Assembly (NCBI RefSeq): GCF_056746865.1
Contig: NZ_CM163382.1
Length of the DNA stretch: 64,000 nt
Direction: 5' to 3' (one strand)
A model generated the notes under the pieces. That model searched no databases. It was not told the DNA's origin and saw nothing but the letters and a program-made list of their open reading frames with translations. This document shows positions 958 to 64,000 of the stretch, in pieces. Within the stretch, counting starts at the first letter, position 1. Each line of letters starts with the position of its first letter. The position numbers were made by a program, and so were the translations under genes.

Positions 958-3813
958 TTACAGCGCGGCGATAACAGCCTGCTGTTCAATCAGCTTCGCT
1001 TTCGCTTCTGCATAGCCTTCCAGCTTTTCACGCTCTTTCGCGATGACCGCTTCCGGTGCGCGGGCGACAAAGCCTTCATTCGCCAGCTTGTTCTCGATAC
1101 GGCTGATTTCGCCTTCGATCTTCGCCACTTCTTTCGCCAGACGCGCCAGCTCATCTTCTTTGTTGATGAGGCCAGCCATCGGGATCAGCAGCTCTGCGCC
1201 GTCGATGATCTTAGTAACGGAAACCGGACCTTTGTCATCGGCAGGCAGCACGGTGATGCTTTCCAGACGCGCCAGCGTTTGCAGGAAGCCACGGTTTTCA
1301 TTTACGCGACGTTCTGCATCCGCGCTGCAACCACGCAGTAGCAGCTCCAGCGGTTTGCCCGGCGCGATGTTCATTTCTGCACGGATGTTACGTACCGCAA
1401 CGATCGCCTGCTTCAGCCACTCTGTGTCGGCCAGTGCGGCTTCATCAACCTGAGATGCATCGTACTGCGGGAACGGCTGCAGCATGATGGTGTCGGCAGT
1501 GATACCGCAAAGTACTTTCACACGCTGCCAGATGGTTTCGGTGATGAACGGAATGATCGGATGCGCGAGGCGCAGCAGACCTTCCAGCACGGTCACCAGC
1601 GTATGGCGAGTACCGCGCAGTTCGGCTTCGGTGCCACCGTTCATTACCGGCTTAGTCAGTTCCAGATACCAGTCACAGAACTGGTTCCAGGTGAACTCAT
1701 ACAGAATGCCTGCGGCGATATCGAAGCGGAAGCTGTCCAGCGCTTCGCGGTACGCTTTGATGGTCTGGTTGAACTCCGCCAGAATCCAGCGATCCGCCAG
1801 CGACAGCGTCATTTCGCCGCCGTTGAAGCCGCAATCCTGACCTTCTGTGTTCATCAGCACAAAGCGGCTGGCGTTCCACAGCTTGTTACAGAAGTTACGG
1901 TAACCTTCCAGGCGTTTCATATCCCAGTTGATATCGCGACCGGTAGAAGCCAGCGCCGCCAGGGTGAAGCGCAGCGCGTCAGTACCGTGCGGTTCAATAC
2001 CGTTCGGGAACTGCTTCTCGGTGCGCTTACGGATTTTGTCCGCCAGCTGTGGCTGCATCATATTGCCGGTGCGTTTTTCCAGCAGTTCTGGCAGCGAAAT
2101 ACCGTCAACCATATCCAGTGGGTCAATAACGTTACCCTTGGATTTGGACATCTTCTGGCCTTCGTCGTCACGAATCAGGCCGGTCATGTAAACAGTGTGG
2201 AACGGCACCTGCGGTTTGCCATTTTCATCTTTGATGAAGTGCATGGTCATCATGATCATGCGGGCAATCCAGAAGAAGATGATGTCGAAACCAGATACCA
2301 TCACGCTGGTTGGGTGGAACTGACGCAGGGCGTCGGTATTTTCCGGCCAGCCAAGGGTAGAGAAGGTCCACAGCGCAGAAGAGAACCAGGTGTCGAGAAC
2401 GTCTTCGTCCTGACGCAGGGCAACGTCGGCACCGAGGTTATTTTCTTTACGCACTTCGTCTTCGTTGCGGCCAACATAAACGTTACCCGCTTCGTCGTAC
2501 CATGCCGGGATTCGGTGACCCCACCACAGCTGACGAGAGATACACCAGTCCTGAATATCGCGCATCCAGGAGAAGTACATGTTTTCGTACTGCTTCGGTA
2601 CGAACTGAATGTCGCCATTCTCAACCGCTTCAACTGCCGGTTTCGCCAGGACATCGGCACGCACGTACCACTGGTCGGTCAGCATCGGTTCGATAACTAC
2701 GCCGCCACGGTCGCCGTAAGGAACGGTCAGGTCGTGCGGTTTAATTTCTTCCAGCAGGCCGAGTGCGTCAACCGCAGCAACGACTGCTTTACGTGCAGCA
2801 AAACGCTCGAGTTTCTGGAACTCTGCCGGGATTTCGCTGGAATAAACGTCAGATTCGTTACCTTTGGTATCGAACACCTGGGCGCTTTCACGGATATCGC
2901 CGTCAAAGGTCAGGATGTTGATCATCGGCAGCGCGTGACGTTTACCCACTTCATAGTCGTTAAAGTCGTGCGCCGGAGTGATTTTCACGCAGCCGGTGCC
3001 TTTTTCCATGTCGGCGTGTTCGTCGCCAACGATCGGAATACGACGGTTAACCAGCGGCAGAATGACATATTTGCCAATCAGATCTTTGTAACGCGGATCT
3101 TCCGGGTTAACGGCTACGCCAGTATCGCCCAGCAGGGTTTCCGGACGGGTAGTCGCAACCACCAGATAATCTTTACCGTCTGCGGTTTTCGCGCCGTCAG
3201 CCAGCGGATAGCGGATGTGCCACATCGAACCTTTTGATTCGCGGTTTTCCACTTCCAGGTCAGAGATAGCGGTGCGCAGTTTCGGGTCCCAGTTTACCAG
3301 GCGTTTGCCACGGTAAATCAGGTCTTCTTTATACAGACGAACGAAAACTTCTTTCACCGCATTGGACAGGCCTTCGTCCATGGTGAAGCGTTCACGCTCC
3401 CAGTCGACGGAGTTGCCGAGACGGCGCATCTGACGGGTAATGGTGCCGCCGGACTCCGCTTTCCATTCCCAGATTTTGTCGATGAAAGCTTCGCGGCCGT
3501 AGTCGTGACGGGTTTTACCTTCTTCTGCGGCAATCTTGCGCTCAACGACCATCTGGGTAGCGATCCCGGCGTGGTCAGTACCGACCTGCCACAGGGTGTT
3601 TTTGCCCTGCATGCGCTGATAGCGGATCATGGTATCCATGATGGTTTGCTGGAAGGCGTGACCCATATGCAAACTGCCGGTGACGTTCGGCGGCGGGATC
3701 ATGATGCAGAAACTTTCCTGGCTTTCATCGCCATTAGGCTTAAAGTAGCCCTGCTTTTCCCAGTGCTCGTAAAGCGGCTGTTCGATATCTTGTGGGTTAT
3801 ATGTCTTTTCCAT
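958..3813 (-). CDS. valS: Valyl-tRNA synthetase
   Basis: 951-aa ORF with class I aaRS HIGH-type motif ([12 protein letters not shown]) and KMSKS motif. Confidence 0.97.
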
Positions 3814-4308: not shown

Positions 4309-4510
<202 letters not shown>

Positions 4511-4511
4511 A

Positions 4512-6026
<1,515 letters not shown>

Positions 6027-16476: not shown

Positions 16477-16561
16477 GCCGAAGTGGCGAAATCGGTAGAC
16501 GCAGTTGATTCAAAATCAACCGTAGAAATACGTGCCGGTTCGAGTCCGGCCTTCGGCACCA
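16477..16561 (+). tRNA. leuX: tRNA-Leu (anticodon CAA), 85 nt with encoded CCA
   Basis: GCCGAAGTGGCGAAATCGGTAGACGC...CGGTTCGAGTCCGGCCTTCGGCACCA; anticodon loop TTCAAAA; long variable arm typical of tRNA-Leu. Confidence 0.95.
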
Positions 16562-19500: not shown

Positions 19501-19995
19501 ATAAACAGGAAACACGGGGCGGTTCACTTTGCTTTCTCCTGTAGTGTTTTCTGTAGGTTCTGAACCGGTTCTAGCGGGGTTGTGAGGCTGATGGCAATCG
19601 CCGGGCTCTTCCTGCATGTTACACTGGTACTGCAAGAGGGGGCCTTCGCTCCTCTGACATTACTCAGTATTTTCACTACTACACCCCATCTGCCATCCAT
19701 AACAACCGATTCACCCCCTCGCGAGGCGTTGTTGCCCGTCACCCGGACAGACACCGTTATGGACTTCTCTTGTTGCACGATCGATCAATTGTTATGCATG
19801 CTGACACCACAACCCCGGTGGGTATGACCGATGCCTTTCTCACTCTCTTCCCGGTCATCGTCGGCCTTCCCCGTTATTGTGGCGTGTCAGCACCCTCGAC
19901 GGCATTTCGATGGCTGCTCAGTGTTCACTCACGTTACGGCCCGCATAACCCGTTGACTTCCTGAAGAAGTCGTTTCAGGGAGAGATTCAGCCCTT

Positions 19996-20325
19996 TTGTT
20001 ACCTCCTGGACCGCTTCTTGTCCTTCCAGTCGGAGCGAGAGTTAGCCGGGGCGGACTTTCACCGACGGAAAGATCGTGCATTTCAAGGCACACACAACAA
20101 TATCTGCGAGCGTGCTATCCGTCCGGTCGTTATGGGACGAAAGGCCTGGTTGTTCGCTGGTTCACTGGTGGCCGGGAACCGCGCGGCACAGATAATGAGC
20201 CTTCTGGGAACCGCAGTCTGGAGCCACATGCTTGGCTGACGGACGTCCTGACGCGTCTGCCGGAGTGGCCGGAGGAGAGGTTGGCTGAGTTACTGCCTCT
20301 TGAGGGCTTTACCTTCTTCGGGTAA
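19996..20325 (+). pseudogene. IS66-family transposase C-terminal remnant (frameshifted); coincides with a 109-aa yjgZ-like ORF
   Basis: Two overlapping frames encode ...ERAIRPVVMGRKAWLFAGS... and ...AWLTDVLTRLPEWPEERLAELLP..., both similar to the C-terminus of the IS66 TnpC at 45.7 kb. Confidence 0.6.
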
Positions 20326-50238: not shown

Positions 50239-50815
50239 GATAACGGTTCATGTATCCCCTGAGCTGACAGTGTACCGGGTATATTAAGCGTAACCGACAG
50301 GTTCTCCTTCATACCATATTAAATTTTTCCAGGTATTGCCGCTGCCTTATTTCGTCCCATACAGGAAAACTCGTCTGGGTTTCTGACAAATACGCGAAAC
50401 TCACAGCCCCTCAATATCAACCACACGCTGTAAGCCGGTAATACCTGAAAATCAGCCTATTACCGCCCGCGCCTCCGTTACCGAACGCTCAGGTGACCAG
50501 ACTGAAGCCCTGCACGCACTCGTAAAGTTTGCGGTCAGTTCCGTCAGTCGGTGGGCAACCGCAGAGTTACGGGCTTCCAGGTCCACAGGAGTGAGTCTAT
50601 AACGCGTGTGAAAAATCATTTTTTCTGGCGTTGACAGAACACATTACAGGCTGCCACTTACCCGGTGTCCCGCAATACAGCCTTAGTGTTCCGTTATCGG
50701 GGATCCGGACGCACCGCAACAACCGGGGAAGTATTTCTGGTTTAGAGCTGTGTCAAGAGGGATTTCTCAGCCCCTCACTCACCGGCTCAGTCTCAGAGCA
50801 GGAGTGGATTTGCCC

Positions 50816-51721
50816 CTATATTTCCAGACACCTGTTATCACTTAACCCATTACTGGCCCGCTGCCGTAGATATTCCCGTGGCGAGCGATAACCCAGTGCA
50901 CTATGCGGATGCCATTCGTTATAATGCTCGAACGCCTCTGCAAGGTTCTTTGCTGCCGTTAACCCGTCTGGTTTAGGCATGATACTGATGTAGTCACGCT
51001 TTATCGTTTTCACGAAGCTCTCTGCTATGCCGTTACTCTCCGGACTCCGCACCGCCGTGTTCTTCGGTTCAAGCCCCAACATCCGGGCAAACTGCCGTGT
51101 TTCATTAGCCCGGTAGCATGAACCATTATCCGTCAGCCACTCTACTGGAGACGCCGGAAGCTCGTTGCCGAAGCGGCGTTCCACCGCTCCCAGCATTACG
51201 TCCTGTACTGTTTCACTGTCGAAGCCGCCCGTAGTGACTGCCCAGTGCAGTGCCTCACGGTCACAGCAGTCCAGCGCGAACGTGACTCGCAGTTTTTCTC
51301 CGTTATCACAGCGGAACTCGAACCCGTCAGAGCACCATCGTTGATTGCTTTCTTTCACGGCCACTTTGCCAGTATGTGCCCGTTTCGATGGCGGTACAGC
51401 GGTTTTTCGCTCAAGCAACAGCGCATTCTGGCGCATGATCCGGTAAACACGTTTGGCATTGATCGCAGGCATACCATCAAGTTCGGCCTGTCTGCGAAGC
51501 AGCGCCCATACCCGACGATAACCATACGTGGGCAGCTCTCCGATAACATGGTGTATACGGAGAAGCACATCCGTATCATCTGAGTGACGGCTGCGGCGAC
51601 CATCTTTCCAGTCATCGGTTCGTCTGAGAATGACGTGCAACTGCGCACGCGACACCCGGAGACAACGGCTGACTAAGCTTACTCCCCATCCCCGGGCAAT
51701 AAGGGCGCGTGCGCTATCCAC
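50816..51721 (-). CDS. insD: IS2 transposase InsD (orfB)
   Basis: 301-aa [33 protein letters not shown]... Confidence 0.9.
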
Positions 51722-52044
51722 TTTTTTGCACGCCCGTATTCAACGGCTTCTTTAAGGAGTTCATTTTCCATCGTTTTTTTGCCGAGCAGGCGCTGGAGTT
51801 CTTTAATCTGCTTCATGGCAGCAGCAAGTTCAGAGGCAGGAACGACCTGCTCTCCTGCGGCCACAGCAGTAAGACTTCCCTCCTGGTATTGCTTGCGCCA
51901 GAGAAATAACTGGCTGGCTGCCACACCGTGTTGCCGGGCAACAAGGGAGACCGTCATTCCCGGTTCAAAACTCTGCTGAACAATAGCGATCTTTTCCTGT
52001 GTAGTACGCCGTCTGCGTTTCTCCGGTCCTAAGACATCAATCAT
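51679..52044 (-). CDS. insC: IS2 InsC (orfA)
   Basis: 121-aa product from [41 protein letters not shown]... Confidence 0.85.
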
Positions 52045-52696
52045 CTGCTCTCCAATGACTAGTCTAAAAACTAGTATTAAGACTATCACTTATTTAAGTG
52101 ATATTGGTTGTCTGGAGATTCAGGGGGCCAGTCTAGGAGCATTAATACGCTCAGTTCATGTCTTATACAGGAATGGGCACAGGGGGAGCTGGCGTGTCAC
52201 TGCTGATTTTACGCATCAGCGTTCATGTATTTGCACTCTGATACAGAATGCTTCACAGCGCTCTGTTACCGGAGAGATTTACTCTCTTAGCTTACTCTGG
52301 CAAATCCTTTACGTTACTCTCTGATGACTTCTTATATTTATAATACCAATCAGACAGCCTTATCCCATCGGTGATATCAGTCTCCTCCTCGCCAGGAACG
52401 GGCTGACTCACTGTAACCACCTCCGAAAACAACTCTGCAATTATCAGAACGCTAGTTTTCCCCTTGTCTCACGAAAGTCCTCCCTCCTTTATCGCGCGTG
52501 CGTGCGGAAGCATCTTTTCGCAACAACCCCCCGGGATTCCGCTACGGCTCTGCCATCGCAATCCCCCCGTTTATCTCCGGACAGCCACATTCCCGATTAT
52601 TTTTTACGTTTCTCCCCGGTTGTTATGCCAGTGAAGGTGGCGCGCTGTTTTCATGACCACACCGGCTGGTTTAACAACATCCGGAGGAACATTCTC

Positions 52697-52870
52697 ATGG
52701 CTACCCCTGTTTCGCTGATGGATGACCAGATGGTCGACATGGCGTTTATCACTCAACTTACCGGCTTAACCGATAAGTGGTTTTACAAACTCATCAAAGA
52801 TGGGGGCTTTCCTGCCCCCATCAAAATGGGGCGCAGCTCCCGCTGGCTGAAAAGTGAAGTGGAAGCCTGG
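52697..52870 (+). CDS. AlpA-family (P4 Vis-like) phage regulatory protein, 3' end interrupted by IS
   Basis: MATPVSLMDDQMVDMAFITQLTGLTDKWFYKLIKDGGFPAPIKMGRSSRWLKSEVEAW; reads into the IS terminus at 52871. Confidence 0.65.
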
Positions 52871-54168
<1,298 letters not shown>

Positions 54169-54243
54169 TGACCGTTATCCGTTCACCCGCAGCAGACGTA
54201 ATCTCCGGCCTGCCGGCGGCATTCTGCTGCCTGTTATATCCCC

Positions 54244-54861
54244 GTGAGGAATATGAAAATGAAACAACAGTATCAGACCCGCTACGAATGGCTCCACGAA
54301 AGCTACCAGAAATGGCTGACCGGCTTCACCCGGCACGCCGTATCCTGGGGCGTGTGTCATCCGAATATCTACTACTTCCATAATCTGACGCCCGGTTGGG
54401 TGTCATTCAATGGTGAAAAACCGGAGATTGCCATCGTACCCCAGAGCCTGCACCGGCTGATTTATGGCCCTGACAAACGGGCCACACCGCCCCTGGATGA
54501 TGATCTGATAGTGAATTTATGCACCAGTGAACATCTGCTGGTTCATCATCCGATGCTGGAAGGCATTCTCCTGTCTGAATGTGAACGTCTGAGGCAGCGT
54601 TCTCTGGCAAATAAACTGATCAGCCTCTTCCGTCAGTTTGGTGGCACGGAGTTGCGCCTCAAACTGGTCTGGCTTTGCTGGCTTGATTTAATGACCGGAA
54701 ACTGCCTTGACGACTGGACGGAGAATCTGAAACGGAAATCAGAAAAAGAGCTGGAGGAATGGATCATCAACCGTCAGAAGCAGAGCGCAGCACTGACGGA
54801 TCTGATGGATCAGTACGTGCTCCTGTCATACCGCACAACGGTTGACGATAAGCGCACCTGA
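54244..54861 (+). CDS. Hypothetical protein (205 aa)
   Basis: Intact ORF downstream of the alpA-like gene; no recognisable motif. Confidence 0.55.
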   Translation: MRNMKMKQQYQTRYEWLHESYQKWLTGFTRHAVSWGVCHPNIYYFHNLTPGWVSFNGEKPEIAIVPQSLHRLIYGPDKRATPPLDDDLIVNLCTSEHLLVHHPMLEGILLSECERLRQRSLANKLISLFRQFGGTELRLKLVWLCWLDLMTGNCLDDWTENLKRKSEKELEEWIINRQKQSAALTDLMDQYVLLSYRTTVDDKRT

Positions 54862-55083
54862 TGCCAGTTGTTTCAGGGAAGCTGGTATCCGGGCAGGGTG
54901 CCAGGGCTGACTGAACGGCCTGTCTGCCTGCCGTTTCGCTCTCCGTGCGTTCTGTCACACGCTGCACCTGAACGCCGGACTGCGGGCACGCAGACAGGAA
55001 AGTCGCAGGCTGGAACTTCTGACCGGCGGGTATCAGTTATATGCCTGTTGATTCATCACCACCACGCAGCTCCTGAGCTTTAG

Positions 55084-55123
55084 TTCATCACCGATATTCA
55101 TACATCTGAATATCGGTGATGAA
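55084..55123. repeat. Perfect inverted repeat, 17-bp arms with 6-bp spacer
   Basis: TTCATCACCGATATTCA tacatc TGAATATCGGTGATGAA in the convergent intergenic region. Confidence 0.9.
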
Positions 55124-55182
55124 ATCCCCATAATAATCAATCATCTAAGTCTGAAGCATAATGGAGAAAAACTGCTCACCGG

Positions 55183-56667
55183 TTACTTCGCTCTCAGCTT
55201 ATTGTAGTGATAACCCGAGGTAAAAATACCAGAGACATCAGACAACTTTAAACTGGCTATCTGGGGAAGCAGAACATACATGGTTTTTCCTTCCGGCACG
55301 ACAGAAAGCCTGAACTGAGATTCAAGAATGTTCAGCAATGCGTTCAGTTTTTTCCTGTTTCTGAACCGGCCCGGGCCACACTGGAGAATATAATTTTTCC
55401 TGACACGGGGCGGGCATTCTCCGCGGCACTCCTCAATGAGCCAGTCGAACAGCTCCTCGGCGTCCTTCTGCTGCAGTTCAGATTCATCAGGTAACGCAAA
55501 TAATTTTTTATATTCATCTGTGTACCACGAACTTATTACGACAGCAGACGTCATGATATCGGCAGAGATTTTCCCTTCACCATAGCTGAAATACTGAAAT
55601 AACGCTGCAATTCTTGCAATGTTTTCTGTTTTTTTTGAAACATGTCCCCGAAACGGGCTTAAGGGTCCGGAAGGGGATAAATCCTGCTCCAGAACATTAT
55701 AGTGCTCAATAAATATTTTTTGCGCTTCAGGCGAAAAATGCAGACAATACCGTTCATCCTCACTGGATTTTTCAATACTGCCTCTGGCCAGTTCCATTAA
55801 TCGTTCATGAAATGCCGTTAATGATCCTCCCGGAATCACAGCTCCGTTAATAAAGCGTTTCCCCTGCGTGGTTGCAGGTTTACTGATAAGACAACGGGCA
55901 AGAAAACCACTGTCCCTGGCAACAGAACCTTTTCGCTCCATATATCGGTCAAAAAGACCGGGTTGCACCATGAGGGATAACGTCATTCTGGCATTTTCAA
56001 TCATCTGTTCGGGTTCATTCTTTCTGTCCACAGACAATACAGAGCCATCCCACATTTTGTTAATAAAAGGCAACTCAGACAGGGTATATCCATCAAATAT
56101 AATACCGGCTTCATCTGACATAATACCAACTGAACGCCATTTACCACAAAGCTGATTCTTAATTGCCGCAGTCGTGGCATCATTAAAAATGAATTTATAC
56201 CTCACAGGTTCTTCCGCACTGTTTTTCTGAAGTACTTCCAGTTGTCTGAGGGTTTCTGACTCATCCGCGCCTTTGCGGAGTTCTTTATTCAGTTTTGACA
56301 ACAATGCTTTTTTCTGAGCCTTTAAAAGCTCTTCCTTGTTTTTCCAGACAGCCAGTTCACTTTTGTATCTGGAATATAACTGCATCTCCTGCTGGTACAG
56401 GGGCTTCATTAATAATTTGTCCACTGCGGTTTTTCGTTCTCCGGACTCGGCAAGCGTCAGGAAAAAAAGAGAGACCGGCCCCCGCAGTGTATTCAGTCTG
56501 CAGACATCAATCAGATTCTGGCAGACAAGTGAAACAGCGCCCAGGGCAGACGCTGCCACAAGCCCAAGGGGAGCCTGCGTAATTTGCTGAGCTTCAATAA
56601 CGGCATCACGAATGAGTGGAGGCAGCGAACTCAGGGGAAACTCATCACAAGGCTGACCGAATGACAT
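55183..56667 (-). CDS. Hypothetical protein (about 494 aa), possibly DUF3987/YfjI-like
   Basis: Long intact ORF; start taken at MSFGQPCDEFPLSSLPPLIRDA; family assignment is recollection only. Confidence 0.45.
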   Translation of the reverse strand: MSFGQPCDEFPLSSLPPLIRDAVIEAQQITQAPLGLVAASALGAVSLVCQNLIDVCRLNTLRGPVSLFFLTLAESGERKTAVDKLLMKPLYQQEMQLYSRYKSELAVWKNKEELLKAQKKALLSKLNKELRKGADESETLRQLEVLQKNSAEEPVRYKFIFNDATTAAIKNQLCGKWRSVGIMSDEAGIIFDGYTLSELPFINKMWDGSVLSVDRKNEPEQMIENARMTLSLMVQPGLFDRYMERKGSVARDSGFLARCLISKPATTQGKRFINGAVIPGGSLTAFHERLMELARGSIEKSSEDERYCLHFSPEAQKIFIEHYNVLEQDLSPSGPLSPFRGHVSKKTENIARIAALFQYFSYGEGKISADIMTSAVVISSWYTDEYKKLFALPDESELQQKDAEELFDWLIEECRGECPPRVRKNYILQCGPGRFRNRKKLNALLNILESQFRLSVVPEGKTMYVLLPQIASLKLSDVSGIFTSGYHYNKLRAK

Positions 56668-57897
56668 AGTAACCTCACTATACACAGATATAAAAGCACT
56701 GCAATTCTGGCTATTAATAGCAAAAATAGCAGTCAAATCAATATGAGGTAAAATTTTTTGTTGATTTAATGGTTAAATAATAACCACAGTGTATTTTGCT
56801 GCTGAAGAAAGACAAAATGAATCTGTGTGTCCCCTCCTTCCCTTCGGAGCACATCCACTATTCAAATTTTACACAACCACGTACGAACAAAAAGCATCAT
56901 CCCGGGTATTGCAGATACCGGTTTCCTGCCGGGAAGAATCATAAACAGAACACCGGGAATAACGCCTTCAGGAATCACCCCCCCTCCTGAAGAAGAATAA
57001 AATAAAGAAGACTACAGTTCCTGCACTGAATGCTGAGTACAATATTTTATGGACAGGATGACATTTTTATAAATAACAAAAACCATTTAATACTGATACA
57101 TCAATAAAATACTTCTTCCCTGCTGACACAGATAAAATGCACCATTTTTTCTTCAAATACTTCTGTATAATCGCCAGCCAATGATGAGAATGGATTAAAA
57201 TAACACTTCTTCGACAAACACAAAAACAGCCTTCATTTTACATCATCATCCAGTTTCAGTTAACCCCGGACGAGCGACAGTGTTTCAGTACAGGAATTAA
57301 AAGCCAGCTTTTGCTCAGTAAAACACACTCAACTAATAATATCTCAGCAGATATTATCCTGACCAGGACACCTCACATTACTGAATTCTCTTCCGACAGT
57401 ATCACTGCACAAATAAAAAAGAACGGGATAAATATTCAGACCGGAAGAATGGTGTCACAAAAGCATTTAATCATTACGCATGACCAGGAAGGGAAACACT
57501 TAACCACATGGTATCAACAGATATCATTACGTGTGCACTCTTATAAAAAACACACAGAAGAAGTAAGATAATTATAAACGTAAATTTAATATCTCCCACT
57601 GACATCTCCCCCACAATACACTAAAAAATACTCACAGCAGTAAACACAGATACACCTGATAATCATACAGCCGATAAATATTTTCCCCTTTACGGAGAAA
57701 TCAGCCTGCTGTTTAACAATAACGGCGTATTTTCATGGAAGGAGATCACCCAGTAACGGATAAGTCCTGATCTCCTTCATGTTAATACGCAACAATCCCA
57801 TCGATTCAAAACAATTTCAGACAGATATTATCTCCGTGAATCCCCCGCCACCTTTCCGGTGCGCGGGGTTTTGTCTTTTTTCACCGGGAATACATGT

Positions 57898-58770
57898 ATG
57901 AATCCGTCTGATGCCATTGAGGCAATTGAAAAACCGCTCTCCTCCCTGCCTTACTCACTTTCCCGTCACATCCTGGAACATCTGCGCAAACTCACCAGTC
58001 ACGAACCCGTGATTGGCATTATGGGTAAAAGCGGGGCCGGTAAATCCTCACTCTGTAATGCACTGTTTCAGGGGGAGGTCACCCCGGTCAGTGATGTTCA
58101 CGCCGGCACCCGGGAAGTGCGGCGCTTCCGTCTGAGTGGCCACGGTCACAGCATGGTTATCACTGACCTGCCCGGGGTGGGCGAGAGCCGGGACAGGGAT
58201 GCAGAGTATGAAGCCCTGTACCGTGACATTCTGCCCGAACTGGACCTGGTGCTGTGGCTGATTAAAGCCGATGACCGCGCCCTGTCTGTGGATGAGTATT
58301 TCTGGCGACACATCCTGCACCGGGGACATCAGCAGGTGCTGTTTGTGGTGACGCAGGCCGACAAAACGGAGCCCTGCCATGAATGGGATATGGCCGGCAT
58401 TCAGCCTTCTCCCGCACAGGCACAGAACATTCGGGAGAAAACGGAGGCGGTATTCCGTCTGTTCCGGCCCGTACATCCGGTTGTTGCCGTATCGGCCCGC
58501 ACCGGCTGGGAACTGGATACGCTGGTCAGTGCGCTAATGACAGCACTTCCCGACCATGCCGCCAGTCCCCTGATGACCCGCCTGCAGGACGAGCTGCGCA
58601 CGGAATCTGTCCGCGCTCAGGCCCGTGAACAGTTTACCGGTGCGGTGGACCGGATATTTGACACGGCGGAGAGCGTCTGTGTTGCCTCTGTTGCCCGTAC
58701 GGTTCTGCGTGCCGTCCGTGACACGGTGGTCTCTGTTGCCCGCGCTGTATGGAACTGGATTTTCTTCTGA
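57898..58770 (+). CDS. YeeP/YfjP/YkfA-family GTPase (50S ribosome-binding GTPase fold)
   Basis: G1 motif GKSGAGKSS, G3-like DLPG; start at MNPSDAIEAIEK. Confidence 0.8.
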   Translation: MNPSDAIEAIEKPLSSLPYSLSRHILEHLRKLTSHEPVIGIMGKSGAGKSSLCNALFQGEVTPVSDVHAGTREVRRFRLSGHGHSMVITDLPGVGESRDRDAEYEALYRDILPELDLVLWLIKADDRALSVDEYFWRHILHRGHQQVLFVVTQADKTEPCHEWDMAGIQPSPAQAQNIREKTEAVFRLFRPVHPVVAVSARTGWELDTLVSALMTALPDHAASPLMTRLQDELRTESVRAQAREQFTGAVDRIFDTAESVCVASVARTVLRAVRDTVVSVARAVWNWIFF

Positions 58771-58884
58771 ACAGTCTGCCAGGGAAATGCCTGATAACAT
58801 TACGTTAACCAACTGAAAACATGACACAAACCCCTCATACTCCTCCTGTTTCTCTTGCGTGACCGCCTTGTCGTTAATAGAATA

Positions 58885-58928
58885 AAACGATCGATAAAAC
58901 AGGTATCGATCGTTGCTATCGATCGTTT
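58885..58928. promoter_or_regulatory. agn43 phase-variation switch: three GATC (Dam) sites in the expected OxyR-binding region
   Basis: GATC at 58889, 58908 and 58921 within AACGATCGATAAAACAGGTATCGATCGTTGCTATCGATCG. Confidence 0.7.
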
Positions 58929-59083
58929 ATAGTGGTTAATGGTCTGCGAAAAGGCAGCTGAATCTCTTCATCATGCAGAACGGAATTGCACACAACGGAC
59001 TGATACTTCTCTGGCGGATGAGAGAGGGGAAGCATTTATGTCCGGGAAAAACCACTTTATCTGAGCATGCTGTTTTGTACCTG

Positions 59084-59116
59084 CCGGTATCCACATTTGT
59101 GGGTACCGGCTTTTTT
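59084..59116 (+). terminator. Terminator-like hairpin plus T6 in the flu leader
   Basis: CCGGTATCCACA-tt-TGTGGGTACCGG then CTTTTTT, ending 26 nt before the flu ATG. Confidence 0.6.
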
Positions 59117-59141
59117 ATTCACCCTCTGTAAGGAAAAGCTG

Positions 59142-62100
59142 ATGAAACGACATCTGAACACCAGCTACAGGCTGGTATGGAATCACATTACGGGCACCCT
59201 GGTGGTGGCCTCCGAACTGGCCCGCTCACGGGGAAAACGCGCTGGTGTGGCGGTTGCGCTGTCTCTTGCTGCTGTCACATCAGTCCCGGCACTGGCTGCT
59301 GACAAGGTTGTACAGGCGGGAGAAACCGTGAACGACGGAACACTGACAAATCATGACAACCAGATTGTCCTCGGTACGGCCAACGGAATGACCATCAGTA
59401 CCGGTCTGGAGTATGGGCCGGATAACGAGGCCAATACCGGCGGACAATGGATACAAAATGGCGGTATCGCCAACAACACTACTGTCACCGGTGGTGGTCT
59501 TCAGAGAGTGAATGCCGGAGGAAGCGTTTCAGACACGGTTATCAGTGCCGGAGGCGGACAGAGCCTTCAGGGGCAGGCAGTGAACACCACTCTGAACGGC
59601 GGTGAGCAGTGGGTACATGAAGGCGGGATTGCAACGGGTACCGTCATTAATGAGAAGGGCTGGCAGGCCATCAAATCCGGCGCAGTGGCAACCGACACGG
59701 TTGTGAATACCGGCGCGGAAGGGGGACCGGATGCGGAAAATGGTGATACCGGGCAGACCGTCTACGGAGATGCCGTACGCACCACCATCAATAAAAATGG
59801 TCGTCAGATTGTGGCTGCTGAAGGAACGGCAAATACCACTGTGGTTTATGCCGGCGGCGACCAGACTGTACATGGTCACGCACTGGATACCACGCTGAAT
59901 GGGGGGTACCAGTATGTGCACAACGGCGGTACGGCGTCTGGCACTGTTGTAAACAGTGACGGCTGGCAGATTGTCAAAAACGGGGGTGTGGCCGGGAATA
60001 CCACCGTTAATCAGAAGGGCAGACTGCAGGTGGACGCCGGTGGTACAGCCACGAATGTCACCCTGAAGCAGGGCGGCGCACTGGTTACCAGTACGGCTGC
60101 AACCGTTACCGGCATAAACCGCCTGGGAGCATTCTCTGTTGTGGAGGGTAAAGCTGATAATGTCGTACTGGAAAATGGCGGACGCCTGGATGTGCTGACC
60201 GGACACACAGCCACTAATACCCGCGTGGATGATGGCGGAACGCTGGATGTCCGCAACGGTGGCACCGCCACCACCGTATCCATGGGAAATGGCGGTGTAC
60301 TGCTGGCCGATTCCGGTGCCGCTGTCAGTGGTACCCGGAGCGACGGAAAGGCATTCAGTATCGGAGGCGGTCAGGCGGATGCCCTGATGCTGGAAAAAGG
60401 CAGTTCATTCACGCTGAACGCCGGTGATACGGCCACGGATACCACGGTAAATGGCGGACTGTTCACCGCCAGGGGCGGCACACTGGCGGGCACCACCACG
60501 CTGAATAACGGCGCCATACTTACCCTTTCCGGGAAGACGGTGAACAACGATACCCTGACCATCCGTGAAGGCGATGCACTCCTGCAGGGAGGCTCTCTCA
60601 CCGGTAACGGCAGCGTGGAAAAATCAGGAAGTGGCACACTCACTGTCAGCAACACCACACTCACCCAGAAAGCCGTCAACCTGAATGAAGGCACGCTGAC
60701 GCTGAACGACAGTACCGTCACCACGGATGTCATTGCTCAGCGCGGTACAGCCCTGAAGCTGACCGGCAGCACTGTGCTGAACGGTGCCATTGACCCCACG
60801 AATGTCACTCTCGCCTCTGGTGCCACCTGGAATATTCCCGATAACGCCACGGTGCAGTCGGTGGTGGATGACCTCAGCCATGCCGGACAGATTCATTTCA
60901 CCTCCACCCGCACAGGGAAGTTCGTACCGGCAACCCTGAAAGTGAAAAACCTGAACGGACAGAATGGCACCATCAGCCTGCGTGTACGCCCGGATATGGC
61001 ACAGAACAATGCTGACAGACTGGTCATTGACGGTGGCAGGGCAACCGGAAAAACCATCCTGAACCTGGTGAACGCCGGCAACAGTGCGTCGGGGCTGGCG
61101 ACCAGCGGTAAGGGTATTCAGGTGGTGGAAGCCATTAACGGTGCCACCACGGAGGAAGGGGCCTTTATCCAGGGGAATAAGCTGCAGGCCGGTGCCTTTA
61201 ACTACTCCCTCAACCGGGACAGTGATGAGAGCTGGTATCTGCGCAGTGAAAATGCTTATCGTGCTGAAGTCCCCCTGTATACATCCATGCTGACACAGGC
61301 AATGGACTATGACCGGATTCTGGCAGGCTCCCGCAGCCATCAGACCGGTGTAAACGGTGAAAATAACAGCGTCCGTCTCAGCATTCAGGGCGGTCATCTC
61401 GGTCACGATAACAACGGCGGTATTGCCCGTGGAGCCACGCCGGAAAGCAGCGGCAGCTATGGCTTCGTCCGTCTGGAGGGTGACCTGCTCAGAACAGAGG
61501 TTGCCGGTATGTCTCTGACGACAGGGGTGTATGGTGCCGCAGGCCATTCTTCCGTTGATGTTAAGGATGATGACGGTTCCCGCGCCGGCACGGTCCGGGA
61601 TGATGCCGGCAGCCTGGGCGGATACCTGAATCTGACACACACGTCCTCCGGCCTGTGGGCTGACATTGTGGCACAGGGAACCCGCCACAGCATGAAAGCG
61701 TCATCGGACAATAACGACTTCCGCGCCCGGGGCTGGGGCTGGCTGGGCTCACTGGAAACCGGTCTGCCCTTCAGTATCACTGACAACCTGATGCTGGAGC
61801 CACAACTGCAGTATACCTGGCAGGGACTTTCCCTGGATGACGGCCAGGATAACGCCGGTTATGTGAAGTTCGGGCATGGCAGTGCACAACATGTGCGTGC
61901 CGGTTTCCGTCTGGGCAGCCACAACGATATGAGCTTTGGTGAAGGCACCTCATCCCGTGACACCCTGCGCGACAGTGCAAAACACCGTGTGCGTGAACTG
62001 CCGGTGAACTGGTGGGTACAGCCTTCTGTTATCCGCACTTTCAGCTCCCGGGGTGACATGAGCATGGGTACAGCCGCAGCCGGCAGTAACATGACGTTCT

Positions 62101-62261
62101 CACCGTCCCGGAATGGCACGTCACTGGACCTGCAGGCCGGACTGGAAGCCCGTGTCCGGGAAAATATCACCCTGGGCGTTCAGGCCGGTTATGCCCACAG
62201 TGTCAGCGGCAGCAGCGCTGAAGGTTATAACGGTCAGGCCACGCTGAATGTGACTTTCTGA
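59142..62261 (+). CDS. flu: Antigen 43 self-associating autotransporter
   Basis: 1039-aa product from [25 protein letters not shown] (extended autotransporter signal), repetitive Gly/Thr/Asn-rich beta-helix passenger, C-terminal beta-barrel ending in F. Confidence 0.9.
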
Positions 62262-62283
62262 TAATCAGGTCACTCTCCTTCAG

Positions 62284-62311
62284 GCCCCGGTCATCATGAC
62301 CGGGGCTTTTT
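62284..62311 (+). terminator. Intrinsic terminator after flu
   Basis: CCCCGGTCAT-c-ATGACCGGGG followed by CTTTTT. Confidence 0.65.
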
Positions 62312-62331
62312 ACTTTCAGGGAGCAACAGAT

Positions 62332-62490
62332 ATGCCGGGTTGTACATCACGTTTATTGCCCGAAGGCCCTTTCTCACGCGAACAGGCTGTTGCCGTCAAA
62401 ACAGCTTACCGCAATGTGTTTACTGAAGATGACCAGGGAACATATTCCCGGCTGGTTATCCGTAATGCTGAAGGTCAGTTGCGCTGGTGA
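62332..62490 (+). CDS. Small hypothetical protein (52 aa)
   Basis: ATG 8 nt after [41 protein letters not shown]...; ORF track start 62296 lies inside the terminator. Confidence 0.4.
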
Positions 62491-62644
62491 TGCTGGAACA
62501 CAGCTTAATACTCAGCTCGCCAGTTAAGGGCTTCTCAGACAATAAACGTCATTCATTTCATCTGTCAGGCCGCGTCTTCTCCGGGAGACGTGGCTTTTTC
62601 ATTTATTACACCAGTAAATCGTAACCACCGATAAGGAGCAAATT

Positions 62645-63463
62645 ATGCGACTAGCCAGTCGTTTTGGTTATGCGAACCAGATACGCCGTGACCGTCCGCT
62701 GACACACGAAGAACTGATGCACTATGTTCCCAGTATTTTCGGTGAAGACCGGCATACTTCCCGCAGTAAACGATATGCGTACATTCCCACCATCACCGTA
62801 CTGGAAAGCCTGCAGCAGGAAGGTTTTCAGCCATTCTTCGCCTGCCAGACCCGCGTGCGCGACCCGGGCCGCCGGGGATACACAAAACACATGCTGCGTC
62901 TGCGGCGGGCCGGAGAGATAAACGGAGAACATGTCCCTGAAATTATTCTGCTCAACTCTCATGACGGTACCTCCAGCTACCAGATGCTGCCGGGTTACTT
63001 CAGATTCGTCTGCCAGAATGGCTGCGTCTGCGGTCAGTCTCTGGGGGAAGTGCGTGTTCCACACCGGGGAAATGTGGTGGAGAAAGTTATCGAAGGGGCT
63101 TACGAAGTGGTGGGGGTTTTTGACCGGATTGAGGAAAAGCGTGATGCCATGCAGTCGCTGGTCCTGCCGCCACCGGCACGCCAGGCGCTGGCACAGGCGG
63201 CACTGACTTACCGTTATGGTGACGAACATCAGCCGGTCACCACCGCTGACATTCTGACACCACGACGCAGGGAGGATTACGGTCAGGACCTGTGGAGCGC
63301 ATATCAGACCATCCAGGAGAATATGCTGAAAGGCGGAATTTCCGGCCGCAGTGCAAAAGGAAAACGTATCCACACCCGTGCCATTCACAACATCGACACC
63401 GATATTAAGCTCAACCGCGCATTGTGGGTAATGGCAGAAACGCTGCTGGAGAGCCTGCGCTGA
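62645..63463 (+). CDS. DUF932-family protein (YfjQ/YafZ-like)
   Basis: 272-aa ORF; typical neighbour of GTPase and antirestriction genes in CP4-type islands; family assignment from memory. Confidence 0.65.
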   Translation: MRLASRFGYANQIRRDRPLTHEELMHYVPSIFGEDRHTSRSKRYAYIPTITVLESLQQEGFQPFFACQTRVRDPGRRGYTKHMLRLRRAGEINGEHVPEIILLNSHDGTSSYQMLPGYFRFVCQNGCVCGQSLGEVRVPHRGNVVEKVIEGAYEVVGVFDRIEEKRDAMQSLVLPPPARQALAQAALTYRYGDEHQPVTTADILTPRRREDYGQDLWSAYQTIQENMLKGGISGRSAKGKRIHTRAIHNIDTDIKLNRALWVMAETLLESLR

Positions 63464-63804
63464 TGCAGCATGTCCCTGAAAGCGTGATTCAGGCACCAGA
63501 ATCACCCGACGCCCCGGAGGCGCTGCCGGGGTGTCGTTCCATTTCTGATGATGACCTGTGCGCCTGGTGTACCCGTCTGCTTTACCGTCCCGGAGAAATC
63601 AGTCTGTGCAGACTGAGTATACAGGCAATGGCATCTGGCCATCCGTCTGTGACCGGAACGGTTACGCGTACGGCTGTCCGGAATTTCAGCCGAATATCAT
63701 TCATCCCTGATATTACCGGGTCATCACGGTCAGTGATGAACGTGATGTTGCCAGCTCCCGACCTTTACTCCCTCTCATTTATTCACATTACAAGGATTTC
63801 ATAC

Positions 63805-64000
63805 ATGAAAACATTGTCTCAGAACACCACCTCTTCGGCCTGTGCACCGGAGACTGACCTGCAACAACTGGTAGCCACTCCCGTCCCTGATGAACGGCGC
63901 ATCAGCTTCTGGCCGCAGCACTTTGGCCTCATTCCACAGTGGGTGACCCTGGAGCCCCGTATCTTCGGCTGGATGGACCGTCTGTGTGAAGACTACTGCG
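63805..64000 (+). CDS. KlcA/ArdB-like antirestriction protein, partial (runs off window end)
   Basis: ...ISFWPQHFGLIPQWVTLEPRIFGWMDRLCEDYC resembles KlcA core motif; AGGA RBS 11 nt upstream; an in-frame upstream ATG at 63463 is also possible. Confidence 0.55.
   Translation, partial: MKTLSQNTTSSACAPETDLQQLVATPVPDERRISFWPQHFGLIPQWVTLEPRIFGWMDRLCEDYC

Follow-up and report, generated by a model that had tools for sequence, protein, structure and literature searches.

The 1230-bp gap between yfjI and the YeeP-family GTPase gene in this 64-kb stretch of E. coli DNA (the window) is best read as a lineage-specific, AT-rich spacer (about 1.1 kb), probably silenced by H-NS, followed at the 3' end of the gap by a conserved promoter and leader-terminator module. 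From the sequence we put the probability of this reading at about 55%. The gap would then be a divergent intergenic region of three layers, with yfjI control at one end, AT-rich filler in the middle and the leader of the GTPase gene at the other end. Its parts are as follows.

56668 to 57897, no strand assigned: whole intergenic tract, with yfjI (DUF3987, minus strand) on one side and the YeeP-family GTPase gene (plus strand) on the other.
56668 to 56790, minus strand: yfjI-proximal control region, with a GAGG Shine-Dalgarno sequence, a palindrome, an inverted repeat and weak promoter candidates.
56791 to 57720, no strand assigned: lineage-specific AT-rich core, with no conserved open reading frame and no known RNA family; it co-occurs with the minus-strand yfjI allele.
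57725 to 57790, no strand assigned: palindromic hairpin element of 66 bp (inverted repeats I9 and I10), each arm of which contains GATC.
57804 to 57897, plus strand: leader module of the GTPase gene (box, GTGAA, GC-rich hairpin, U-run, Shine-Dalgarno sequence and ATG), from a covariance model and locus comparison.

The window contains a leuX tRNA-Leu(CAA) gene (16477-16561) and, downstream of it, an integrative island of the CP4-57/CP4-44 type. In RefSeq the gene order is an AlpA-family HTH protein, a 200-aa hypothetical protein, the YfjI-family protein (minus strand), the gap and a 290-aa GTPase. Pfam places the YfjI-family protein in DUF3987 (E 1e-95), the GTPase in MMR_HSR1 and the AlpA-family gene of the same island type in PF05930; the alpA-like gene of the window is split by an IS. 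In the RefSeq copies, the genes downstream of the GTPase gene are agn43, DUF905, DUF932, antirestriction, JAB/RadC, DUF987 and YeeU/CbtA. RefSeq/PGAP starts the minus-strand yfjI gene at ATG 56667, preceded by the GAGG Shine-Dalgarno sequence, and the GTPase gene runs from ATG 57898 to a stop at 58770. The long gap that the sequence-only reading had described upstream of the GTPase gene was thus borne out and is slightly larger with the PGAP start. That reading had drawn its left border from an extended TTG start of yfjI at 56736.

The base composition of the tract is A.36, C.23, G.15 and T.26. It is AT-rich, as had been claimed from the letters: its GC content is 0.38 (62% AT over 1.2 kb) versus 0.51 for the whole window, and among the 1.2-kb stretches of the window it is one of the most AT-rich. 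The A+C fraction of the plus strand, about 0.59-0.60, is the extreme of the window (1.2-kb stretches, mean 0.50, sd 0.027).

Of 5426 complete E. coli genomes, 1906 (about 35%) carry the core of the tract (56740-57720), at 2356 places, and among the matches listed no annotated feature (PGAP/RefSeq) lies beneath it. The 5' end of the window's yfjI allele has nearly the same distribution, occurring in 1908 genomes at 2342 places. The minus-strand yfjI gene and the tract are therefore linked as a single unit. The tract falls into three lineages: the window type, that of loci L002, L003 and L042, and that of loci L004 and L041. Copies of the tract from different lineages share 78-88% identity and are separated by many indels of lengths not divisible by 3; for the flanks the identity is 91-93% (yfjI) and 96-97% (GTPase gene). 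The tract has a similar length in all three lineages and contains no long open reading frame in any of them. None of its 19 open reading frames of at least 20 aa was intact in all four other copies, which come from the two other lineages, and the earlier statement that the gap holds only short open reading frames is confirmed across the three lineages. On these comparisons, the tract is non-coding DNA and is less constrained than the neighbouring genes.

Within the central kilobase, three blocks (56867-56950, 57048-57103 and 57506-57601) are conserved at 90% or more between lineages. Moreover, the motif CAGATA occurs seven times on the plus strand and not once on the minus strand, against 0.45 expected. 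The label 'passive spacer' leaves both the conserved central blocks and this excess without explanation. As a functional signal the excess was set aside because its conservation between lineages is only partial (two of the seven sites are kept in all lineages). Diagonal identity within the tract was not above that of shuffled sequences, so neither internal duplication nor tandem repeats were detected by this measure. When plasmid and phage DNA was compared with the tract by blastn, the only similarities were to the leader module and to the 66-bp palindrome.

At the yfjI end, two blocks, 56701-56744 and 56759-56799, keep a conservation of 90% or more when all three lineages are compared. The elements in this region are listed below.

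56698 to 56733: palindrome.
56771 to 56785: inverted repeat GGTTAAATAATAACC.
Within the yfjI-proximal region: weak −35/−10 candidates TTGATT-17-ATTAAT, picked by eye.

The first 120 bp or so next to yfjI probably hold its ribosome-binding site, its promoter (assigned by eye) and palindromic operators. Towards the other end of the tract, the 66-bp palindrome is precisely missing from the L004/L041 lineage, and other copies are found downstream of cdtC on pVir68 and beside eaaC in P-EibA/C, where it is annotated as a stem_loop. It is a dispensable and dispersed element.

The last 94 bp of the tract are conserved far beyond E. coli. Across 31 GTPase loci from other Enterobacterales, homology to the tract starts sharply at about 57804, and the sequence farther upstream differs from locus to locus. 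In order, the leader consists of a near-invariant box (A)AATAATTTCAGAYAGATATYATC, GTGAA, a GC-rich hairpin, a U-run, and a purine-rich ribosome-binding site with the ATG. Its elements in the window are listed below.

57805 to 57831, plus strand: sigma-70 promoter candidate TTCAAA-15-TATTAT (−35 at 57805-57810, −10 at 57826-57831).
57813 to 57832, plus strand: near-invariant box AATTTCAGACAGATATTATC, which covers the spacer and the −10.
57843 to 57868, plus strand: leader hairpin CCCCGCCACC/GGTGCGCGGGG, dG −18.5 kcal/mol.
57869 to 57881, plus strand: U-run TTTTGTCTTTTTT, which abuts the stem; hairpin and run together (57843 to 57881) were flagged as terminator-like.

A covariance model of the leader was built from six sequences, and the model-based alignment was used for the pairing statistics. 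With this model the module was found in 26 loci, once per locus, and all 26 hits abut the start codon of the GTPase gene; the loci range from Escherichia to Pectobacterium, Yersinia and Photorhabdus. It is single-copy within the 64-kb window. The model had three matches in IMG/VR, and both of the two that were inspected are GTPase leaders. In K-12, a relic leader precedes the ypjI pseudogene, whose start resembles the GTPase. The leader is better conserved than the GTPase protein that it precedes. It belongs to a known kind of element, a promoter followed by an intrinsic-terminator leader, and this particular promoter and hairpin module appears to be undescribed in the searchable literature.

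The box is likely to be part of a promoter. Five positions of the −10 (T-A-T-n-A-T) are invariant in 24 sequences; the spacer AAATAATTTCAGAYAGA hardly changes from genus to genus, and the −35 varies. Compared with the consensus, the −10 TATTAT matches at five of six positions and the −35 TTCAAA at four of six, with a spacer of 15 bp. The usual sigma-70 spacer is 16-18 bp. A consensus scan did not call the GTPase promoter because the 15-bp spacer and the weak −35 lie outside the usual range. Transcription is predicted to start at about 57838. The candidate is homologous to sites upstream of K-12 ykfA and yfjP that were bound by RpoD holoenzyme in vitro in a SELEX study and assigned TTGAAA-15-TATCAT (Shimada et al. 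2014, PMC3946193); a SELEX site of RpoS holoenzyme is also listed upstream of yfjP (PMC5493296). The SELEX peaks of the first study are of low resolution and its authors chose the hexamers by inspection (PMC3946193). The 'constitutive' K-12 promoters of ykfA and yfjPQ have the same position and geometry as the window's candidate and are likewise followed by a hairpin, a U-run, a Shine-Dalgarno sequence and an ATG, but their hairpin sequences are unrelated and the 1.1-kb tract is absent, as rnlB lies before yfjP and perR before ykfA. Neither the leader hairpin nor its conservation across genera is mentioned in Shimada et al. 2014 (PMC3946193). The sequence-only reading had suggested a promoter in the gap, and this is supported at the extreme 3' end of the gap only. 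Conservation of the spacer is far stronger than that of the −35, which is unusual for an ordinary promoter and suggests a protein-binding element inside the promoter spacer.

The pairing of the hairpin is conserved while its sequence is not. In the model-based alignment, 95.2% of the cells are paired and six of ten pairs change on both sides; none of 500 shuffles reached the observed level, and slid controls gave at most 65%. There are 23 distinct hairpins in 24 leaders, with at least six unrelated stem sequences and a dG of −10 to −22 kcal/mol. At the position of this hairpin, stems of unrelated sequence are found in K-12 (yfjP, ykfA and ypjI), Cedecea, Serratia grimesii, Photorhabdus tasmaniensis, Hafnia and Pectobacterium. 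A U-rich tail comes right after the stem in 22 of the 24 leaders; the exception is the Pectobacterium leaders, whose hairpin has no clear U-tract and may serve another role. The hairpin and U-tract therefore look like an intrinsic terminator, and we regard them as a putative terminator or attenuator. No Term-seq 3' ends were found at K-12 yfjP, ykfA or yeeP in the supplement of Adams 2021, a result that is uninformative for genes of such low expression.

It is possible, though a good deal less probable than termination or attenuation, that the hairpin is instead a 5' stabilising stem-loop joined to a U-rich translation enhancer, or an insulator against upstream cargo behind a box that is not a promoter. 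With the predicted start, the hairpin would begin only some 5 nt into the RNA, and Pectobacterium has kept it without the U-run. The sequence that follows the −10 is able to pair, around the hairpin, with the ribosome-binding region in most but not in all lineages (mean z −1.15, which is weak), and this pairing is relevant only to RNA that has read through. At many loci an upstream plus-strand gene ends within the box, so that the hairpin would also be the terminator of that gene; however, the module is kept where there is no such gene, as in the window. Furthermore, the U-run that abuts the stem in 22 of 24 leaders is needed by a terminator and not by a stabiliser, the box holds the invariant −10, and holoenzyme binding in vitro is published for the paralogous sites of K-12 (PMC3946193, PMC5493296). 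A more elaborate proposal accepts the terminator and takes the box, together with this covarying terminator, as the loading site of a processive antiterminator encoded by the island, with an AlpA-like protein or the unannotated protein with an RHH-like tail that is usually encoded just before the leader as candidates. The whole operon of GTPase, Ag43, antirestriction and toxin-antitoxin genes would then be switched on, the IsrC terminator (see below) would also be read through, and H-NS would silence the region via the tract. Promoter-proximal terminators that are read through by loaded antiterminators are known from P. aeruginosa PalpB-tB with AlpA (PMC7969949, PMC9371919) and from lambda PR'-tR' with Q. 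Both resemble the window in having a promoter, a conserved element between −35 and −10 and an intrinsic terminator before the first open reading frame, and an AlpA-family gene (PF05930) belongs to the window's island type and is present in sister islands. The P. aeruginosa AlpA motif GGGACGN5GGTA is absent from the box, and its counts across the window are those expected by chance. The box is also absent from the region upstream of K-12 intA, which we take to be the target of E. coli AlpA. Because of these two results and the IS-split alpA-like gene of the window, antitermination is kept as a minority reading only, and an improbable one. For the leader we prefer the reading as a promoter with a putative terminator or attenuator behind it.

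For the rest of the tract, the sequence-only reading had raised the possibility of an sRNA and had pointed to an sRNA reported in the yeeP-flu region of K-12. An Rfam 15 covariance-model scan of 54000-64000 (E ≤ 1) gave no match inside the tract, and the only matches, IS102 and isrC (RF01387), both lie outside it. The relevant feature is given here.

58887 to 59123, plus strand: homolog of the IsrC/IS102 sRNA (agn43 leader), matched by Rfam RF00124 at 73.4 bits (gathering score 46).

This homolog lies beyond the stop of the GTPase gene (58770) and before the start of agn43 (59142). The sRNA suggested for the tract is not supported. The sRNA of K-12 is real and is IsrC, whose annotated coordinates are 2071317-2071511, with the 5'-truncated yeeP pseudogene on one side and flu on the other, but its place is on the other side of the GTPase gene, downstream and not upstream, and the analogy has to be corrected in this respect. 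IsrC (RF00124, K-12 CP4-44) and the GTPase leader share the island family and operon neighbourhood, and IsrC is a short leader-type RNA with an intrinsic terminator just before an open reading frame (agn43), as the GTPase leader would be; they differ in that IsrC is downstream of the GTPase gene, and the tract has no match to it. Because yeeP is 5'-truncated in CP4-44 of K-12, that island lacks an equivalent of both the tract and the leader module.

Three other explanations of the tract were weighed against the spacer reading. One is that it encodes a small or long regulatory RNA on the plus strand that ends at the hairpin and U-run (57843-57881). Besides this terminator-like end, shuffled sequences fold less well than the right half of the tract (z −3.3 on the plus strand and −2.6 on the minus strand), and a promoter-like TTAACC-16-TATCAT (57500-57527) lies within a conserved block. 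However, the excess folding energy comes from two local hairpins, the dispensable palindromic element and the leader hairpin, and the left half has no significant structure. The five promoter-like sites compare with 3.9 ± 2.0 expected from shuffles, and upstream of 57804 there is no conservation outside E. coli and there are large indels between lineages. With the empty Rfam scan of the tract and IsrC lying elsewhere, such an RNA is very unlikely. Equally doubtful is a cis site for the DUF3987/YfjI protein, which would make the tract a replication or transfer origin of the island. The strict linkage to the yfjI allele (1908 versus 1906 genomes), the AT richness, the seven CAGATA copies in one orientation and the DnaA-like boxes (one exact and seven within one mismatch, against 3.2 expected) would fit an origin. 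Nevertheless, there are no clustered iterons, and no tandem repeats or internal duplication above shuffle level, the CAGATA motif is kept in all lineages at only two of the seven sites, and there is no IHF site and no convincing DnaA, IHF or Fis pattern. The tract does not resemble plasmid oriT or ori sequences, as its plasmid matches are confined to the leader module and the 66-bp palindrome, and we found no experimental evidence for YfjI as a replication or transfer protein.

The tract might also be a pseudogene, the eroded remains of one or more cargo genes that once filled the slot between yfjI and the GTPase gene. This slot is variable and is usually coding in related islands. In K-12 CP4-57 the yfjI-yfjP slot holds six genes (yfjJ, abpB, abpA, yfjM, rnlA and rnlB), and at other loci it holds a methyltransferase-like or helicase-like open reading frame (judged by eye) or, very often, an unannotated protein of 300-400 aa. 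Pfam, NCBIfam and PHROGs gave no name to this upstream family or to a 205-aa open reading frame. The usual slot gene is on the plus strand and its TAA stop falls within the conserved leader box. The length of about 1.2 kb and the A-rich plus strand of the tract fit the orientation of this usual occupant. A relic of the usual slot gene was searched for in six frames over five tract variants, by tblastn with 11 members and by a family HMM, and was rejected, as the best E was about 0.4. Moreover, no annotated gene lies under any distant blastn homolog in E. coli genomes, plasmids or phages, and the three lineages hold a similar length without a long open reading frame. An origin from former cargo is thus unlikely, though less so than an RNA gene or a replication origin. 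The slot resembles the cargo hotspots of P4-like satellites and integrative elements, where a fixed slot between conserved genes varies in content from copy to copy and, according to the portions of the hotspot papers covered here (Rousset 2022, PMC9122126; Hochhauser 2023, PMC10121019), often encodes defence systems. The K-12 slot has abpAB and rnlAB, whereas the slot of the window holds non-coding DNA. In the same portions of these two papers, no description of the yfjI-GTPase slot was found (PMC9122126, PMC10121019).

The spacer reading agrees best with these results. About 1 kb of AT-rich DNA would fill the cargo slot and travel with the yfjI allele, and it is most likely a passive spacer and a silencing platform. 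From its AT content the tract is a plausible H-NS target. It resembles H-NS-silenced AT-rich intergenic regions of islands in its 38% GC within a 51% background, its tRNA-associated island and the divergent promoters at its ends. A Lang-type H-NS motif TCGATAAATT with up to two mismatches was matched three times, against about 1.1 expected from its density in the window, and is only mildly over-represented. To our knowledge, a strong A+C skew on one strand, such as that of the tract, is not a recognised feature of H-NS targets. By composition, the AT richness could bring H-NS over both divergent promoters, and the excess of C over G on the plus strand could favour the loading of Rho on untranslated plus-strand RNA.

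In the preferred reading, the last 94 bp would be what actually controls the GTPase-Ag43 operon. An RNA started at about 57838 would form the hairpin from about +5 and reach the U-tract by about +44. Unless termination is leaky or overridden, a large share of the transcripts would end short of the GTPase gene. With a terminator so close to the promoter, expression of the operon would therefore depend on read-through, either leaky or assisted by a factor.

The tract itself is of little consequence, being unannotated AT-rich filler in Ag43 islands of about a third of E. coli genomes. The leader, by comparison of the loci, forms the fixed boundary of a cargo slot in which K-12 has defence genes. 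If the leader is an attenuator, then a common accessory operon, comprising the GTPase, the Ag43 adhesin, antirestriction and toxin-antitoxin genes, would be gated after the initiation of transcription.

Directly 5' of the GTPase leader module, proteins of 300-400 aa were found in many genera. They belong to a highly divergent, unannotated family that had no match in Pfam, NCBIfam or PHROG, and genes for them lie at the following positions in the comparison loci:

L005, 2085-3002
L006, 1864-3015
L014, L016, L019, L020, L022, L025, L026, L028 and L029, just 5' of position 3001

Tryptophan motifs are conserved within the family, and the C-terminus looks ribbon-helix-helix-like by eye. The conserved box of the candidate promoter contains the TAA stop codon of the upstream gene. 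The upstream protein is a candidate regulator of the leader module.

In the window, the tract upstream of the GTPase gene (56668-57897) carries CAGATA seven times on the plus strand and never on the minus strand, against 0.45 expected. These sites are spaced 129-227 bp apart, and only two of them are conserved in all lineages of the tract. The sequence CAGATAT[TC]AT is common to the -10 box of the candidate GTPase promoter and three of the CAGATA copies. Other elements in or near the tract are:

55084-55123, perfect inverted repeat (17 nt, 6-nt loop) between the convergent 205-aa ORF and yfjI
57725-57790, 66-bp palindromic element, a GATC in each of its 24-nt arms
58887-59123 (+), IsrC/IS102 sRNA homolog

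The inverted repeat is likely to be a bidirectional terminator. The palindromic element is precisely absent from the lineage L004/L041. Copies of it are found 3' of cdtC on pVir68 (L008, 2501-2564) and adjoining eaaC in phages P-EibA/C, where it is annotated as a stem_loop, and an 86-bp stretch containing it has matches in about 2250 E. coli genomes. It seems to be a small hairpin module with dispersed copies.

The IsrC/IS102 homolog begins at the agn43 Dam/OxyR switch, at its three GATC sites, and is closed by a strong terminator (approximately 59083-59117); the agn43 ATG (59142) is only about 25 nt further. Since the homolog ends in a terminator just 5' of this ATG, the agn43 leader has the same layout as that proposed for the GTPase leader, a promoter followed by a terminator.

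Compared with locus L001, which is otherwise identical, the window has two IS insertions. It also has three other gathering-level Rfam matches:

50805-52134, IS2 (1330 bp, 5-bp duplication)
52871-54128, IS3-family element (1258 bp, 3-bp target duplication)
4362-4437 (-), naRNA4
5271-5465 (-), Ysr276
19929-20068 (-), group II intron D1-D4 domain

The IS3-family element interrupts an AlpA-family gene (52697-52870 and 54132-54164) near codon 58 of 68. Its 5' end (53938-54060, minus strand) matches the Rfam family 'isrC Hfq binding RNA' (RF01387, 150 bits), overlapping the start of orfA, and therefore this family appears to describe an IS leader, not an island-specific sRNA.

K-12 CP4-57 carries the GTPase leader module a second time, as a relic with box, hairpin, U-run, SD and ATG, 5' of the pseudogene ypjI (L009, 22455-22548). 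The start of ypjI is GTPase-like, and the sequence after it is, by eye, DUF905-like. This arrangement suggests a deletion and gives a hint that K-12 CP4-57 is a tandem composite of two elements.
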